Part shown: positions 2,427 to 45,970 of the stretch, piece by piece
Numbering within the stretch: the first letter of the stretch is position 1
How the letters are laid out: every line of letters starts with the position of its first letter
Source: a virus
Length of the DNA stretch: 64,000 bases
IMG/VR virus record: IMGVR_UViG_3300010430_000004
Coordinates: 104,537 to 168,536 of that record
Strand: one strand, 5' to 3'
The notes under the pieces: generated by a model
Database searches by the model: none
What the model was told of the DNA's origin: nothing
The model's input: only the letters and a program-made list of their open reading frames with translations
Made by a program: the position numbers and the translations under genes

Positions 2427-3221
2427 ATGGATAAAGACAAAGTACTGCAAGCAGTAAATGACATTAAGAAAAAGTTTGCGACTGAAAGTGTAGATGAAGA
2501 ACAGGTGAAGGAAAGCTTCGTAGATAAGCTTAATGCCTTGCTACAATCTATTTTCGGAGATGATGTTGATGCTGCCTATGAGCTTCTTGAAAAAGGCGAC
2601 CTTTCTAATTATAGGAAGAGCTATATTAAACGATTAAGAAAATTTGTATATTCTAATCTGAAAAATTTCTTCTACGCAGCGTTTATGTTCAGTATTGTAG
2701 CATTTCTAGTATCTGAAGCTGTTACTTTTTATGCCGTTGATGGAGTGGTAGAATCTAAGACGTATATAAAGGCTATACTGACTGAAGTCAGTTTCATCTT
2801 TCTTTCCGGCTATGTAGCAACGACCAAATGGACCCAGGTAATAAGCAAATTACTCCTGGCTGGAGTATTTGGGCTTATGCTGTTTGTAATCTCTGCTGAA
2901 ACTCTTAAACAGGGAGAAGCAGGAAGTCAAGAGTCTGCTATTATTGCCCAACAGATTATCACACTAGAGACACAGATAAAAGAAAAAGAAGAATTGATTA
3001 AATACTATGTATCTATTGGTTGGCCAAGAAATGCCACAACTACTAGATTAGAGAAACAAAAATTAGTAGATAAGCTGCTATTACTAAAAGAAAAACAAGC
3101 AGCTGGAAAAAATGAAAGCGTTACTGACATTGAGCGTTATAAAAGTTATGGTAAGGCTTTCTTTAGAGTGATATTATTAATGATCAACTTACTTATTTCT
3201 AGAAGAGTGTTTAAGTTTTGA
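2427..3221 (+). CDS. membrane protein with coiled-coil region
   Basis: Several hydrophobic segments plus heptad-rich segment. Confidence 0.75.
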   Translation: MDKDKVLQAVNDIKKKFATESVDEEQVKESFVDKLNALLQSIFGDDVDAAYELLEKGDLSNYRKSYIKRLRKFVYSNLKNFFYAAFMFSIVAFLVSEAVTFYAVDGVVESKTYIKAILTEVSFIFLSGYVATTKWTQVISKLLLAGVFGLMLFVISAETLKQGEAGSQESAIIAQQIITLETQIKEKEELIKYYVSIGWPRNATTTRLEKQKLVDKLLLLKEKQAAGKNESVTDIERYKSYGKAFFRVILLMINLLISRRVFKF

Positions 3222-39750: not shown

Positions 39751-40673
39751 TGACTGAGAAGCAGGAAAAATTCTTAAACTTATTAATGGATGAGGGTGAA
39801 ACTTTTTGTGTCGCCCATAATCCTTACGGCTATCATTCCATTAGTCGTAAAGATCTTAATAAGCCAGAATTCTTACTGACTCCACCTGAGCCTTCTCCTG
39901 AACAACTAGCTGAAGGCAAGTATCTAAAACCAGAAAATATAACCCTGGACATGATAAATATGTTAGCTATCAACCCTATTTCTGGCTGGAGAGATGACCG
40001 CTCTGTAACTTCTCTAAGAAATTTTTTAGTAGAGATTGATGATGGACCACTTAAAGAGCAAAAAGAATACATGGATAAAACCGGATTGCCCTACAGTGCT
40101 TGTGTATTCTCTGGAGGTAAGTCTTTGCATTTTGCTGTTTGTTTAGACGTACCATTGCCAAATATTGAGGCTTATAAAATGATTAGTAGGTGGATACTTG
40201 CTATAGTAACTCGTGCTGATCAGCAGACTATAAACCCTAGTAGAAGTATCCGTTTTCCTGGAAACAAGCGTAGAGTATATGGCAAAAAAGTAGTGCCATT
40301 TGAAGAGCGTAGAGATCAGAAGCTTCTTATATGTCGCGAAAGAATCACCCAAAAAGAGCTATTTAACTGGCTAAGTAAGCATAAAGATAAGAAACCTAAA
40401 ATAAACGTCAGAAAAAAGACCATATCAACCAACGCTTCTCTTAAAAGCCTAAGTAAATGGGCAAAAGGTGAAATAAAAGATGGAGTTCCTGCTAGAGACG
40501 GCAGAAATAAGACATGGTTTGCTCTTGGCTACGACTTTTGTTTGGCAGGATTCGAAATAAACGATACTTATAGTATATTAGAGGCTTACTTCGCTGAAGA
40601 GCACGATTTTACCAGGCGAGAGTGGGAATATACTATTAACCGTGGCTACAAAAAGTGTATTGAGGAAAATTAA
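39750..40673 (+). CDS. AEP/RepB-like primase with C-terminal PriCT-like domain
   Basis: VEIDD, SGGKSLH, SRSIRFPG, GRNKTWF. Confidence 0.75.
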   Translation: MTEKQEKFLNLLMDEGETFCVAHNPYGYHSISRKDLNKPEFLLTPPEPSPEQLAEGKYLKPENITLDMINMLAINPISGWRDDRSVTSLRNFLVEIDDGPLKEQKEYMDKTGLPYSACVFSGGKSLHFAVCLDVPLPNIEAYKMISRWILAIVTRADQQTINPSRSIRFPGNKRRVYGKKVVPFEERRDQKLLICRERITQKELFNWLSKHKDKKPKINVRKKTISTNASLKSLSKWAKGEIKDGVPARDGRNKTWFALGYDFCLAGFEINDTYSILEAYFAEEHDFTRREWEYTINRGYKKCIEEN

Positions 40674-42157
40674 TGAAAAGAACGACCAATGAGTTTAATG
40701 TCAAGTATCTTAGTCACTTAAAGGATGTAAATTTCCTATTAGAAGGCTCATGCAAGCAATGGAACTCAGTCGCTACTAATCAGCTCAAGAGAAAGCTAAA
40801 ATTAGAAGAAGACTATTTTGAAGATGAGCGCACTAAATGTATTAGTTTTGATGTTAACTTTCAAAACGGTTCTGTAGCTTCTTTTCTATTTGTTCCAGAA
40901 GATATAAAGACCTTTGATCTTCAAGAAGAATTAGTATCTTCCTTTGGTGATACCATTAAAGAATCAAACAACATCTCATTCAACATATTGGGCCTTGATA
41001 AAAAACTTCAAAAATCATTAGTTAGAGATATGACTAGTCTTATCAAGCTATATGAATGGGAAAAGCCTACTTTCGGCAAACGCAAAAATAAGAAAGAGAA
41101 ATATCCCAAGAAAAAGAACTACGGATTTTATAGTGAACTGGAAGACAGTGAAACTTATATCACTGAAGGTATTGAGCTAGCTGAAGCAAATAACCTAGCC
41201 AGAACACTTTGCGTAATGCCTGGAAACTTCATGAAAAGCAAAGACCTACTAAAAGCTGGCATTAAGGTTGCTAAAAACCTTAGATGTAAGTATGAAGTTC
41301 TTAAAAAAAGCAACCTTATGCACTTAAGGGCTGGGGCTTTTTTATCAGTTATGCAAGCAGACCCAGATAGTGAAGGTGGAATTCTTCATATAAAATACCG
41401 CACAAGAAGCAAAGCAAAGTCTGTAAAAAATATAGCCATTGTAGGAAAAGGTATAGTATTTGATACTGGTGGGTACTCAATTAAAGACGATGAGAGTATG
41501 CAAAATATGCACAAAGATATGACTGGAGCTGCCATTGCCTTGGGAGCTTTTAAAGCTTTAGTTAAAACTAAACCTAAGTGCAATATTGATTGTTATCTAG
41601 CAGTAGCTGAGAACCTTATATCTCCTACCGCTTATCGTCCAGAGGATGTTGTTACGGCTATGGATGGTACAAGTATAGAAATAAAAAACACTGACGCTGA
41701 AGGCCGTATGTGTCTCATAGATACTATGATCTACGCCCAACGTCAAGAACTTAAAATTGACTTGATGCTTGACTTTGGTACCCTTACTGGAGCTGCACCG
41801 TATTCTATGGATACTAAGTATGCTTGCGTATTTTCTAATAACTACGAATTAGCACTAAAAGCCGTAGAGGTAGGGCAAGAATGCGGAGAAAGAGTGTGGA
41901 ATTTTCCAGTAGGAGAAGATTACGCTGAACAATTAGAAAGTGAAATAGCTGATATACGTCAGTGTCAAAAATCAGAAAATGCCGATCACATATATAGTGC
42001 TACTTTTCTCAAGCATTTTGTAGGCGACAAGTTAGATTGGGTCCATGTAGACCTTTCAGCTGAAGAAAACGAAGGTGGACTGGGACTAGTAGAAACAGAC
42101 ACTACTGGCCATGGTGTTCGCTGGGCCTACGATTTTATCAAAAAATATACAGAATAA
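40673..42157 (+). CDS. pepA: M17 leucyl aminopeptidase
   Basis: GKGIVFDTGG, KDMTGAA, NTDAEGR, TLTGA, WVHVD. Confidence 0.93.
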   Translation: MKRTTNEFNVKYLSHLKDVNFLLEGSCKQWNSVATNQLKRKLKLEEDYFEDERTKCISFDVNFQNGSVASFLFVPEDIKTFDLQEELVSSFGDTIKESNNISFNILGLDKKLQKSLVRDMTSLIKLYEWEKPTFGKRKNKKEKYPKKKNYGFYSELEDSETYITEGIELAEANNLARTLCVMPGNFMKSKDLLKAGIKVAKNLRCKYEVLKKSNLMHLRAGAFLSVMQADPDSEGGILHIKYRTRSKAKSVKNIAIVGKGIVFDTGGYSIKDDESMQNMHKDMTGAAIALGAFKALVKTKPKCNIDCYLAVAENLISPTAYRPEDVVTAMDGTSIEIKNTDAEGRMCLIDTMIYAQRQELKIDLMLDFGTLTGAAPYSMDTKYACVFSNNYELALKAVEVGQECGERVWNFPVGEDYAEQLESEIADIRQCQKSENADHIYSATFLKHFVGDKLDWVHVDLSAEENEGGLGLVETDTTGHGVRWAYDFIKKYTE

Positions 42158-42164
42158 AAAATAC

Positions 42165-42193
42165 TAGCATTTTTTAATAATCCATGTTATACT
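42165..42193 (+). promoter_or_regulatory. class I promoter driving the tRNA-like RNA
   Basis: TAGCAT-17-TATACT; 30 nt identical to the promoter at 6169-6198. Confidence 0.88.
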
Positions 42194-42204
42194 GTTTTTA
42201 GTAC

Positions 42205-42269
42205 GGTAGGCTACGGTGTGGTACCCTCTGTTGGCCAAACACCCAGGTTCGAATCCTGGGTAGCCTGCC
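42205..42269 (+). ncRNA. non-canonical tRNA-like RNA
   Basis: Perfect T-arm CCAGG-TTCGAAT-CCTGG, 9-10 bp closing stem, shrunken D and anticodon-like arms, no encoded CCA. Confidence 0.7.
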
Positions 42270-42287
42270 CGAATTTTTGGAGGAATT

Positions 42288-42677
42288 ATGGGAATGTTTG
42301 ATAGTTTTTATTTTGCTAAAGATCTATTACCTAAAAATAAAGTAGATGAAAATCACGAATTCCAGACAAAAAGCCTTGGATGTGATCTTGACAAATACTA
42401 TATTGACTCTAATAGAAACGTTACAAGGGTTCCTTTCTTTGAACAAGGCGAAAAAGACCAAGAATTAATCAGGAGATATGAAATTGAGGAAAAAATAAAC
42501 GAAGTAGTTTATGTTCGTTCTCATGTTTTTTACTATGAAAATGAAAACGATCTTTTTGGTAGAAAATATTTAGGAAGTGACGTTCAAGAATATAAAATTG
42601 TAATAAAAGATAATAAATTAGTATATGCTGAAAAAATATTAGACGAAGTTATGGGAGAAGATAATGAAAACCCTTAA
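42288..42677 (+). CDS. hypothetical phage protein (MGMFD...FQTK type)
   Basis: GGAGG RBS. Confidence 0.75.
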   Translation: MGMFDSFYFAKDLLPKNKVDENHEFQTKSLGCDLDKYYIDSNRNVTRVPFFEQGEKDQELIRRYEIEEKINEVVYVRSHVFYYENENDLFGRKYLGSDVQEYKIVIKDNKLVYAEKILDEVMGEDNENP

Positions 42678-43014
42678 AGAATTATGCGAAGAATCTCTAG
42701 AAAAAAGAACAACAACCCTTTATATGGCTCTTAAAGAAAAGGCTTCCTTTGAAAACAATCAAAGCATTAAAGATCATTTACTCAACCAACTAAATGAGTT
42801 TCAATACAGATTTGAAGTAGGCTATCGAGAAGGTTTTTGGTTTTCTCAGAAATTAAATAAAGAAAAAGATGAAAAAACAGATAAACTTTTAAAGGCTTTA
42901 AATAGCATCGCCCATATTGGTGTGGTAATGGACAATGAAACTGGCCAACAATGGGATTGTGACCCTATTCAAGTAGCACAAGAAGCCCTATCAGAATATG
43001 CGGATATGCCATGA
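42664..43014 (+). CDS. hypothetical protein
   Basis: GGAG RBS. Confidence 0.65.
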   Translation: MKTLKELCEESLEKRTTTLYMALKEKASFENNQSIKDHLLNQLNEFQYRFEVGYREGFWFSQKLNKEKDEKTDKLLKALNSIAHIGVVMDNETGQQWDCDPIQVAQEALSEYADMP

Positions 43015-43253
43015 CTTATGAAGAAGCTGTAAAATCAGACAAACCATTTAATAGAAAGAAATATAAAGATGGATGGTATAATATAGATGACAGGGGCTAC
43101 ACCTGCCACATAAGAGATTTATCCATCAGATGTCCAGCCTTTACTGAAGAAGACAAGAAAGCCACTGATTGGCACGTTTGGGATGGAAAAACTTTAACTG
43201 AAATTAGAAAACAACTCAGAGAACAAAGGAAGAAAAATGATAACACTAAATGA
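43011..43253 (+). CDS. hypothetical protein (DUF2829-like ATDW ending)
   Basis: MTYEEAVK...EDKKATDW. Confidence 0.6.
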   Translation: MTYEEAVKSDKPFNRKKYKDGWYNIDDRGYTCHIRDLSIRCPAFTEEDKKATDWHVWDGKTLTEIRKQLREQRKKNDNTK

Positions 43254-44013
43254 GAAGCCAGTAAAAACTGATATGTTTCCAGACAATACTAGCCAGGTAT
43301 GGAAGGTTGAAAATCTTCCACCTAAAGGTTTGGCAGCTAAAGTGGTATGGACTTATTCACATGAAGGTGAATTCATGCAGCTTGCTCAGTTAAGAGCCTT
43401 GCTTCACAAAAATGAAAATCCTGCTTATCTTACTATATGCTATTTACCTTATGGTAGACAAGACAAGGAAATTTCCAATGAAGCTACTTTTGCTTTACAG
43501 CCCTTTGCAGCGTTATTAAACTTTTTAGATTTTAGACACGTTACTATAGTGGACCCTCATTCTACTATTGCCACTGATCTTATATACAACTCTGATGCGT
43601 ATTATCCTATAACCACGATACTTAATCTTATAAGTAAGACAAGTACTGATCTACTTTGTTATCCAGATAAGGGCGCTTTAGGAAAATATGCGTCAATGTT
43701 TGAGATGGACCATGTATATGGTGAAAAAGTAAGAGATCAGTCGAGTGGTTGGATCACGGACTATGCTCTTATCGGCGATGTGAAAGATAAGACGGTTCTA
43801 ATCGTAGATGATATTTGCGATGGTGGAATGACCTTTAAACTTCTAGCAAATGCCTTGATGGAGAATGGCGCAAAGGAGGTAAATCTATATGTATCGCATG
43901 GTCTTTTTTCTAAGGGCCTAAAAACACTTAAAGAAAACAAAATTAATCGGATTTTCACTAAAGAAGGTGAATGTAGTGAGGTCCAAGGAAATATAACTTA
44001 TAGGAGATTATAG
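43237..44013 (+). CDS. ribose-phosphate pyrophosphokinase-like protein (candidate Adps of NARP1)
   Basis: LPYGRQDK, VDPHS, PDKGA, IVDDICDGGMTF, VSHGLFS. Confidence 0.9.
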   Translation: MITLNEKPVKTDMFPDNTSQVWKVENLPPKGLAAKVVWTYSHEGEFMQLAQLRALLHKNENPAYLTICYLPYGRQDKEISNEATFALQPFAALLNFLDFRHVTIVDPHSTIATDLIYNSDAYYPITTILNLISKTSTDLLCYPDKGALGKYASMFEMDHVYGEKVRDQSSGWITDYALIGDVKDKTVLIVDDICDGGMTFKLLANALMENGAKEVNLYVSHGLFSKGLKTLKENKINRIFTKEGECSEVQGNITYRRL

Positions 44014-44015
44014 TT

Positions 44016-45533
44016 ATGAGAGATTTAAATGCAATGTTATTATGTGATTTTTATAAACTGAGCCACAGAGCTCAATACCCAACAGGTACAGAGAAAGTAT
44101 ACTCTACCTGGACCCCAAGAGCCAGCAGAATGAAGGGCGTAGACCATGTAGTCGCTTACGGTTTTCAAGGCTTTATCAAAAAATATCTTATTCAATTTTT
44201 TAACAATGAGTTTTTTAGTAGACCCATTGCAGAAATTACCGAACAATATTCTAGAATTATAAAAGGAACGCTAGGCGTAGAAGAGCCTGATTTTTCTCAT
44301 ATAGTTGCTTTACATAAACTTGGATATTTGCCGATTAAAATTAAAGCCCTTCCAGAAGGTACAAAAACCCCTCTAAGAGTTCCAATGATGACTATTCAAA
44401 ACACTCACAAAGATTTTGCTTGGTTGACAAATTACTTAGAGACTCTTGCCTCTTGTGAATTGTGGCAAGCCTGCACTAGTGCAACTATTGCTGACCAATA
44501 CCGTCAGATATTAGACAAATATGCCAACAAAACTGTAGGAAATACAGAGTTTGTTCAATTTCAAGGTCACGATTTTTCCATGCGTGGAATGAGCAGCTTA
44601 GAATCTGCTATGATCAGTGGTTCTGGACATTTACTAAGCTTTGCTGGTACTGATACCATTCCAGCTGTTAGTTATCTTGAAGAATATTATAATGCTGACG
44701 TAACTAAAGAATTAGTTGGTACAAGCATTCCAGCTACTGAGCACTCTGTTCAATGTGCTTATGGCAATGATGATCTTTACCTTAAAAGAATGATGACTGA
44801 GGTTTATCCTACTGGGCCAGTAAGTATCGTGTCTGACGGATATGATTTTTGGGATGTTATTGGTAGAGTTTTGCCTAGCCTTAAAGAAGATATTCTTGCT
44901 CGTGGTGGAGATCGTGGTCCAGAATTTTTGGATAAAGTAGTTATTCGACCTGATTCTGGTGATCCTGTAAAAATCGTATGTGGAGATCCATCAATAGGGG
45001 CTTTGATTAAAGATTTGGAAATATATTCAAAAGAAGATGAAATGATAGCAAAGGGTGCTGTTGAATGTCTATGGGATATTTTTGGTGGACACGTCAATGA
45101 ACAAGGTTATAAGGTTCTTAACCCTAAAATTGGTCTAATTTATGGAGATGCCATTACACTCAATCGTTGCGAAGAGATTTGTAAACAATTAGAAGCCAAA
45201 GGCTTTGCAAGCACTAACGTAGTGTTTGGTATTGGAAGCTACACTTACCAATATAACACCAGAGATACTTTTGGGTTCGCTCTTAAGAGCACTCTTTGCG
45301 TTATTGACGGAGATGAGAAACAAATTTTTAAAGACCCTAAAACTGATAATGGCATTAAAAAGAGCCAAAAAGGTCGGGTAGTAGTTCTTGAAAAGGATGG
45401 TGAGCTTACTTTTATGGATGGCCTATCTCTTGAAGATAAAATGAGCAAGGATCTTTTAAAGACAGTTTTTTGTGACGGTAAACTTGTAATTGACCAAAAA
45501 TTGGAAGATATTCGAGAAAGAGTAAGAAAGTGA
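44016..45533 (+). CDS. nicotinamide phosphoribosyltransferase-like protein (candidate Namat of NARP1)
   Basis: DFYKLSH, HDFSMRG, PATEHS, VSDGYD, RPDSGDP, YGDAI, RDTFGFALK, KDPKTD. Confidence 0.93.
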   Translation: MRDLNAMLLCDFYKLSHRAQYPTGTEKVYSTWTPRASRMKGVDHVVAYGFQGFIKKYLIQFFNNEFFSRPIAEITEQYSRIIKGTLGVEEPDFSHIVALHKLGYLPIKIKALPEGTKTPLRVPMMTIQNTHKDFAWLTNYLETLASCELWQACTSATIADQYRQILDKYANKTVGNTEFVQFQGHDFSMRGMSSLESAMISGSGHLLSFAGTDTIPAVSYLEEYYNADVTKELVGTSIPATEHSVQCAYGNDDLYLKRMMTEVYPTGPVSIVSDGYDFWDVIGRVLPSLKEDILARGGDRGPEFLDKVVIRPDSGDPVKIVCGDPSIGALIKDLEIYSKEDEMIAKGAVECLWDIFGGHVNEQGYKVLNPKIGLIYGDAITLNRCEEICKQLEAKGFASTNVVFGIGSYTYQYNTRDTFGFALKSTLCVIDGDEKQIFKDPKTDNGIKKSQKGRVVVLEKDGELTFMDGLSLEDKMSKDLLKTVFCDGKLVIDQKLEDIRERVRK

Positions 45534-45970
45534 TAGTTGAAGAAATTCAAGGAAATCTTTTAGATACAACCGTGAGCGCAATTGCTCACGGTGTTAATTG
45601 TCAAAATACTATGGGTAGTGGAGTAGCTAAGGCCTTGTTTACCAAATGGCCTGAGATTAAATCTAAATACCATGATTTTTGCAACATGAATGGCCCATCT
45701 CACAGATTAAGCCAAGTTCAGGCCGTGAATACTGATGATAAAACTATATTGAATTGCTTTACTCAAGAGTGGTATGGTTATGATGGCAGAAAATATGTCA
45801 GCTATGATGCTATCTATGAGTGTTTCAATTTTATTTCTCAGTTTTATGACGAAGTAGCTATTCCAAAAATAGGCTGTGGCCTAGCAGGTGGTGATTGGAA
45901 TGTTGTCAAAGAAATAATAAATTCTGCTACTGGCAGCGACTGTAAAGTTTACGTTTATTATTTAAAATAA
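45530..45970 (+). CDS. macrodomain protein (ADP-ribose processing)
   Basis: GNLL, HGVNC..MGSGVA, PKIGCGLAGGDW. Confidence 0.92.
   Translation: MIVEEIQGNLLDTTVSAIAHGVNCQNTMGSGVAKALFTKWPEIKSKYHDFCNMNGPSHRLSQVQAVNTDDKTILNCFTQEWYGYDGRKYVSYDAIYECFNFISQFYDEVAIPKIGCGLAGGDWNVVKEIINSATGSDCKVYVYYLK

Follow-up and report, generated by a model that had tools for sequence, protein, structure and literature searches.

An orphan tRNA-like element, probably tRNA-derived, in the leader upstream of a phage NARP1-like gene pair

The locus, its promoter and its leader

The window studied here, i.e., the whole stretch of 64,000 nucleotides that was analysed, is the final 64 kb of a 168,536-bp IMG/VR virus record; it has a G+C content of 35.9% and its genes are tightly packed, mostly on the + strand. 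Between a gene for an M17 aminopeptidase and a block of six closely spaced or overlapping ORFs lie a promoter and a leader that contains a 65-nt tRNA-like element (Table 1). The block includes a NARP1-like pair, namely the Adps-like and Namat-like genes, together with a gene for a macrodomain protein, and from gene spacing alone we infer that all six ORFs share one transcript. A first-pass annotation of this DNA had placed the element at the head of an operon with NARP1-like genes, and this placement is upheld: the promoter and leader precede all six ORFs, the NARP1-like pair and the macrodomain ORF among them.

The protein encoded by the first ORF (129 aa; 42288-42677) is a member of a small family whose N-terminus, MGMFD-F-F, is invariant. 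Pfam has no match for it, and a PHROG family without known function matches it only weakly; its AlphaFold model is all-beta and confident (pLDDT 83), with no match in the PDB at E<=0.001. On one metagenomic phage contig (L192, 1501-2732), a homologue of this protein is followed directly by a gene with an RNA-ligase domain, one gene beyond which lies a metallophosphoesterase.

The promoter belongs to a recurrent class with at least ten copies in the genome, in agreement with the proposal that the element has a promoter of its own. The class motif, ACTAGCA/AGTAGCT-N15-TGTTATAyT, stands in each copy 15–30 nt upstream of an RBS and an ATG, and the copy in the window is nearly identical to that at genome position 110706. 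The architecture of the class comprises an A-run, ACTAGCA, a T-run and, exactly 15 nt after ACTAGCA, TGTTATAyT, always directly before a gene. The -35-like box departs from the sigma-70 consensus, which suggests a recognition factor directed by the phage. From the usual spacing of 6–8 nt we infer that transcription starts near 42200-42201; the element begins some 4–5 nt past this point, at the 12th base after the -10 box TATACT that ends at 42193, just as had been annotated.

The order of the leader is thus -10 box, 11 nt, the 65-nt element, CGAATTTTT and GGAGGAATTATG, and the GGAGGAATTATG context also occurs behind the class promoter at genome 76649 on the minus strand. As leaders of this class are normally 15–30 nt long, the element can be seen as an insertion of 65 nt into a short leader that is standard in all other respects, and among the class members this leader alone carries such an insert. 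Since the other promoters of the class do without the element, it is not needed for expression. A terminator was rejected as its main role: the segment 42257-42271 with the following T5 run is only a weak match to the consensus, and the tRNA-like fold is far more stable.

Table 1. Features of the locus, of the promoter class and of Adps leaders in related phages. Positions are those of the window unless a genome or contig is named.
Feature	Position	Strand	Remarks
M17 aminopeptidase gene	40673-42157		upstream of the element; Pfam E 1.6e-91
Promoter	42163-42193	+	ACTAGCA 42163-42169, 15 nt, extended -10 TGTTATACT 42185-42193
Other promoter class sites (three of at least nine)	genome 36143, 39136, 76649	-
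Other promoter class sites (six of at least nine)	genome 100414, 110706, 130377, 134875, 136187, 143311	+
Closing stem, 5' strand	42205-42214	+	pair probabilities 0.91-1.0
Leader GGT	42205-42207	+	pairs with trailer
Acceptor, 5' strand	42208-42214	+	inner 7 nt of stem; Rfam tRNA alignment begins at 42208
Core	42215-42242	+	28 nt, non-canonical
GGTACC	42220-42225	+	within core
Palindrome TTGGCCAA	42231-42238	+	within core; halves read by tRNA model as loopless anticodon stem
T-arm	42243-42259	+	CCAGG, loop TTCGAAT, CCTGG
Closing stem, 3' strand	42260-42269	+	pairs with 42205-42214
Acceptor, 3' strand	42260-42266	+
G at discriminator position	42267	+	followed by CC at 42268-42269
Spacer	42270-42287	+	18 nt: CGAA, T5 run 42274-42278, RBS GGAGG 42279-42283
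Start codon ATG of first ORF	42288-42290	+
Six-ORF block served by the leader	42288-45970	+	ORFs packed tightly or overlapping
First three ORFs downstream of leader			129 aa, 116 aa, 80 aa; no assigned function
Adps-like PRPP-synthetase homologue	43237-44013	+	fourth ORF of block
Namat-like NAMPT homologue	44016-45533	+	fifth ORF of block
Macrodomain ORF	45530-45970	+	sixth ORF of block
Adps leader, related phage	L011 3114-3222
Adps leader, related phage	L016 3106-3224
Adps leader, related phage	L017 ~3120-3203
Adps leader, related phage	L022 2621-2791
Adps leader, related phage	L026 ~2870-2952

An intact acceptor/T-arm stack around a shortened core

The sequence at 42205-42269 on the + strand is as it was first described, with the stems, the T-arm and the 28-nt gap all in place. 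The closing stem has 10 bp, one of them a G.U, and directly adjoins a T-arm whose stem has 5 bp, among them the closing pair G53-C61, and whose 7-nt loop, TTCGAAT, is canonical, such that 15 stacked pairs run without a break and all are intact. When its inner 7 bp are read as an acceptor, the element has the stack of acceptor (7 bp) and T-stem (5 bp), capped by a canonical T-loop, that true tRNAs display; the base at -1 relative to this acceptor is U. The observation that no CCA is encoded stands as far as it goes, though on the 7-bp reading the stem is followed by G-C-C in the places of N73-C74-C75. Between the 5' strand and the T-arm lie 28 nt, as had been counted, versus about 41 in a tRNA, where the D-arm, anticodon arm and variable loop are found.

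The intact acceptor/T-arm stack is far beyond chance. The window contains a single copy of the 17-nt T-arm and its 100 shuffles contain none, and a descriptor of a T-arm with an adjacent closing stem of at least 7 bp, run over the 168.5 kb of the genome, matches at two places, the element and a tRNA at genome 51530 (shuffled genomes: mean 0.1). The minimum free energy of the whole element is -29 kcal/mol (z = -2.9), and in folds of the 131-nt leader it forms an independent domain.

The core presents a different picture. Two layouts can be drawn that are nearly isoenergetic: a mini cloverleaf with the hairpins GGT-GTGGT-ACC and TGTT-GGCCA-AACA (-27.4 kcal/mol), and a three-way junction with one central arm, which RNAfold slightly prefers (-29.0 kcal/mol). 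With the outer stem and T-arm held fixed and the 28-nt core shuffled 1,000 times, the native core shows no excess of folding over its own shuffles (z = 0.09), 51% of which are as good. Thus, the mini D-arm (42215-42225) and short arm (42229-42241) of the first-pass annotation can be drawn and are possible, but as D-like and anticodon-like arms they find no support against shuffles. The same applies to the D/T elbow that the element was said to retain: a D-like hairpin with its GG is drawable, against which stand the shuffled cores and the score of the mascRNA model (15.8 bits, threshold 42.5; see below). Neither palindrome of the core is unusual in the genome, and there is no restriction-site avoidance at either.

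Detectors of tRNA genes place the element below their limits. ARAGORN makes no call in the window, as had been expected, and Rfam returns no match there at its gathering threshold. Searched alone, a 79-nt segment scores 18.8 bits against the tRNA model RF00005 (threshold 29; E 0.048); the match disappears in scans of 501 nt and of the whole window, and at E<=1 genome-wide. The alignment nevertheless runs end to end from 42208 to 42267, taking the inner 7 bp as acceptor, G42267 as discriminator and the full T-arm, whereas nine positions are deleted between TTGG and CCAA and part of the D-arm is missing too. The element has no 7-nt anticodon loop on a 5-bp stem, and as the model aligns to it without that loop, it can be considered tRNA-like but unable to decode. 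The earlier claim that it is unlikely to decode is thereby sustained on all three counts, i.e., by ARAGORN, by the Rfam score and by the alignment.

Insertion of any 7-nt loop between TTGG and CCAA causes ARAGORN, at default settings, to call a 71-nt tRNA whose acceptor has 8 bp, whose D-arm is small and whose variable region has 3 nt. In the control, 23 of 300 shuffled cores (8%) are also called at some insertion point, so this result, which fits a decayed tRNA gene, only mildly favours the deletion of a loop (p ~0.08) and does not demonstrate a single clean deletion. The acceptor end itself (A1-U72, G2-C71, G3-C70 and G73, then CC) is of a type that tRNA-Trp and tRNA-Gln genes of phages possess, and the AGG...CCT-G-CC end with the same T-arm occurs in tRNA-Trp and tRNA-Gln of viral contigs. 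The ancestor may have been a tRNA gene of the phage whose acceptor end was of the Trp/Gln type and which lay between promoter and protein genes, like the tRNA genes of related phages; the anticodon loop and some of the D region would then have been lost.

Relatives and tRNA genes of related phages

The element is an orphan, a tRNA-like and probably tRNA-derived sequence that was found in none of the relatives searched. Megablast and blastn searches with positions 41000-43500 against 50,697 phage records gave no match, and blastn with the element gave only T-arm/acceptor matches to assorted tRNA-Trp, Asn, Arg, Pro and Gln genes. The exact 20-nt 3' half was found in IMG/VR in one unrelated 85-nt tRNA, apparently a tRNA-Pro, and in none of the 185,579 species genomes of GTDB. 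Patterns fared no better: TTGGCCAA followed by the T-loop matched two ordinary long-arm tRNAs in IMG/VR and nothing homologous; GGTACC...TTGGCCAA...GGTTC matched 84 stretches of the JGI metagenomes, none with a T-arm; and the T-arm with a CTGCC end matched 11 normal tRNA-Gln, Trp and Arg genes in IMG/VR and nothing else. A covariance model built from the single sequence recovered only ordinary tRNAs from 39 related phage records, and at 80 Namat loci neither ARAGORN nor our own descriptor detected a short-core element. With no homologue at hand, there is no evidence from covariation.

Neighbouring genes were traced as well. The element is absent from the two nearest contigs (L005 and L006, whose peptidase is 82% identical), and a metagenome scan with the peptidase found no relative. 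On L005 (2838-2980) and L006 (4482-4625), the ACTAGC box still stands after the peptidase stop, but the promoter behind it differs and the gene that comes next is unrelated, which makes the site of the element a boundary of gene-module exchange. Seven loci with homologues of the 129-aa protein (L002, L003, L089, L192 and L194-L196) have either no element or no intergenic space, the homologue being overlapped by its upstream gene or preceded by an ordinary leader.

The phage itself has a single match to the tRNA model (genome 51531-51599, 48 bits), while the count in related phages ranges from 0 to 35. This gene (G000, genome 51530-51600) lies outside the window, 53 kb upstream of it. Its anticodon loop has 6 nt according to ARAGORN; with a loop of 7 nt the anticodon would be GUU (Asn), position 33 would be C, and the anticodon stem would contain a C.A mismatch. 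As with the element, GA, a T run, an RBS and an ATG come next. In the relatives, tRNA genes often stand 6–7 nt past a -10 box of the TGATATAAT type, ahead of protein genes, and in one (L009) a tRNA-Ala and an odd tRNA lie directly upstream of the NARP1 pair.

Incomplete tRNA-like sequences are found in several related phages. They include a 39-nt acceptor/T-arm minihelix straight after a TATAAT box (L187; G019 145575-145613), a 58-nt short-core tRNA look-alike with an encoded CCA (L185; G036 89072-89129) and a 57-nt form with an Ile-type anticodon arm and no T-arm (L184; G014 75156-75212). These pieces show that truncation of tRNAs is common in this phage group, with detection biased toward pieces that retain the T-arm and acceptor. 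At the end of a tRNA cluster, just before an ORF, stands a tRNA-Trp-like gene of 75 nt (L178 1486-1560; present with identical sequence on the reverse strand of L181), which has the loop CUCCAAA, G73 and an encoded CCA; only three of its five anticodon-stem pairs form, and ARAGORN does not call it.

A separate kind of leader was encountered in related phages: it is conserved and structured, measures about 75 nt and lies, behind a TGATATAAT promoter, ahead of Adps in the NARP1 pair (Table 1). From its AAGGCArGT start it runs through a CCCTAGATTGA..TGGG hairpin up to the RBS AAGGAGCC, where it ends; both sides of a long-range stem appear to change between phages. It has no match in Rfam at the gathering threshold and can be put forward as a candidate riboswitch or regulatory leader of a phage NAD-reconstitution operon. 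No leader of this type is present in the window.

Processing signal, relic or decoy

The most probable reading, which we hold tentatively, is that the element may be a tRNA-derived, non-decoding acceptor/T-arm module in an mRNA 5' leader that is processed by host RNase P and 3' nucleases, much as the t-elements of plant mitochondria are. Of the three roles first suggested for it (mimic or decoy, RNase P/Z processing signal, Y-RNA-like module), the processing signal indeed fits best, given the intact stack, the U at -1 and the G-C-C after the stem. The leader would fold into the 15-bp stack capped by the canonical T-loop, and host RNase P would measure from this loop and cut 12 bp away, leaving the 7-bp acceptor; by this ruler the cut is expected between 42207 and 42208. 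RNase E, RNase Z or 3' exonucleases would then cut or trim the A/U-rich CGAAUUUUU trailer, freeing a stable RNA of about 60 nt with a G-C-C end, to which an A would be added if the host CCA enzyme acts, while the operon mRNA would gain a new 5' end a few bases upstream of the RBS. Counting against the processing reading, cleavage by RNase P could be slowed or displaced by the pairs between the 3-nt leader and G-C-C.

RNase P acts at a fixed distance from the tRNA elbow along the stack of T-stem-loop and acceptor, and RNase Z clamps the elbow (PMC4919913). In plant mitochondria, t-elements with the motif GGTTCRANYCC upstream of mRNAs direct cleavage of this kind, for which RNase P and RNase Z are the proposed enzymes (Forner et al. 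2007, PMC1920247), e.g., upstream of cox1, rps4 and ccmFN1 in Arabidopsis (PMC1920247); the phage element contains this motif as GGTTCGAATCC at 42246-42256, along with its 10-bp closing stem. Further, the RNase P-dependent maturation of the MALAT1 3' end at mascRNA is efficient only if leader and trailer pair so as to extend the acceptor (PMC8457004). Were the element processed and useful to the phage, it would represent tRNA-shaped 'punctuation' in a bacteriophage, an instance of the principle, known from mitochondria and vertebrate lncRNAs, that mRNA ends can be defined by tRNA-like structures, and could offer a simple, portable RNA-processing tag for bacteria.

Nearly as likely is an inert relic, a serious if doubtful candidate in which the element would be a tRNA pseudogene left by an internal deletion, its stems still perfect because it is young, with no benefit to the phage; RNase P may cut such a relic as a side effect. 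Its singleton status, with no conserved relatives, fits this account, as do the near-complete loss of tRNAs from the genome (one match, against 0–35 in related phages), the assorted truncated pieces in those phages, the tRNA call once a 7-nt loop is restored and the want of excess structure in the core. It sits less well with a heavily altered middle beside 15 stacked pairs and a T-loop with all its canonical bases: uniform decay would not spare exactly the half that enzymes read, though detection methods favour that half, and the shuffled cores that also pass loop restoration weaken the case for one deletion. A relic would record a large phage lineage in the course of losing its tRNA genes and warn that tRNA finders miss such pieces. 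That the structure acts instead as a 5' stabiliser or translational element, guarding the mRNA from decay that depends on the 5' end or pairing the RBS with CCUCU (42225-42229), appears quite unlikely. A stable domain does lie just past the inferred start site, and a CCUCU/GGAGG pairing of 5–6 bp is possible, but this pairing is weak, the minimum-free-energy fold separates the tRNA-like domain from the RBS, and as a plain hairpin would serve equally, the canonical T-loop is left unexplained.

A role as mimic or decoy is attractive because an anti-defence operon follows, yet we consider it unlikely. A freed, anticodon-less mini-tRNA would titrate a host binder of tRNA bodies, such as a tRNA-targeting defence nuclease, a synthetase or a modification enzyme. 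Judging by gene position, it would be transcribed with the NARP1-like and macrodomain genes; anticodon nucleases presumably could not cut an RNA without an anticodon loop; its acceptor end is that of phage tRNA-Trp and tRNA-Gln; and mascRNA shows that a body of 57 nt arranged in this way suffices for an L-shape (PMC11693755). Against this, there is neither conservation nor a partner gene, the structure of the core is unsupported, and the link to the operon is one of position only. Genes for Ro60, RtcB, an Rnl2-type ligase and a CCA-adding enzyme were not found in the phage. The fuller version, in which the phage would make a mascRNA-like, anticodon-less mini-tRNA of about 60 nt, cut by RNase P from the leader of an anti-defence (NAD-reconstitution and macrodomain) operon, as decoy or inhibitor of a tRNA-binding immune nuclease or a synthetase of the host, is to be regarded as very unlikely. 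If true, it would be the bacterial-virus counterpart of eukaryotic viral and lncRNA-derived tRNA mimics, and a released RNA with a target would constitute a new type of phage counter-defence RNA. Least credible, indeed extremely improbable, are a Y-RNA-like module, a tmRNA-like domain or an attachment site with the 3' part of a host tRNA, for all of which there speaks a general likeness to tRNA only. The suggestion of a Y-RNA-like module fails: the YrlA model does not match even at E<=10, and the phage lacks a Ro60/TROVE gene (a search for the TROVE domain gave matches in control genomes and none here). A tmRNA was rejected in the absence of an ARAGORN or Rfam call and of a match at E<=10, the wobble being a U.G in the outer extension rather than G3:U70. 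So was attP: the 20-nt 3' half occurs in 0 of 185,579 species genomes, searches with the Phage_integrase and Resolvase domains found neither a tyrosine nor a serine recombinase in the phage, and the core of such a site would not carry the complementary 5' acceptor strand.

With the bacterial YrlA Y RNAs (RF02553; PMC4201824), the element has in common a non-decoding, tRNA-like module of acceptor, T-arm and D-loop; it differs in lacking the long Ro-binding helix and in a phage devoid of a Ro60 gene. Phage tRNA genes of the Trp/Gln type and phage pseudo-tRNAs are likewise close: the element resembles tRNA-Trp and tRNA-Gln of viral contigs in its AGG...CCT-G-CC end and its T-arm, shares the promoter-proximal place seen in relatives, and departs from such genes in having no anticodon loop, a compact D region and sub-threshold scores with ARAGORN and Rfam.

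In a layout that nearly parallels that of mascRNA and menRNA (RF01684), the acceptor of 7 bp can be drawn next to an 11-nt D-like hairpin with GG, which is followed by a short third arm and then by the T-arm of 17 nt. Its segments of 7 + 11 + 17 + 17 + 7 (59 nt) compare with 7 + 11 + 15 + 17 + 7 (57 nt) in mascRNA, with no linkers, and both have an acceptor extended by leader and trailer and no anticodon. In its crystal structure, mascRNA forms an L that is held together by an elbow of GG and T-loop (PMC11693755). On the 79 nt, the RF01684 model scores 15.8 bits versus a gathering threshold of 42.5 (E 0.34), and mascRNA and menRNA are 3' ends of vertebrate lncRNAs whereas the element lies in a phage leader; the resemblance is one of analogy only, not membership. 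The t-elements of plant mitochondria, for their part, are organellar and several have mapped RNA ends, whereas the phage element is distinguished by its place in a phage leader and the 3-bp extension of its stem by leader and trailer. With them it shares a non-canonical cloverleaf, a T-arm of the GGTTCRANYCC type with its acceptor, the absence of decoding and a putative position within a transcript, beside the end of an mRNA.
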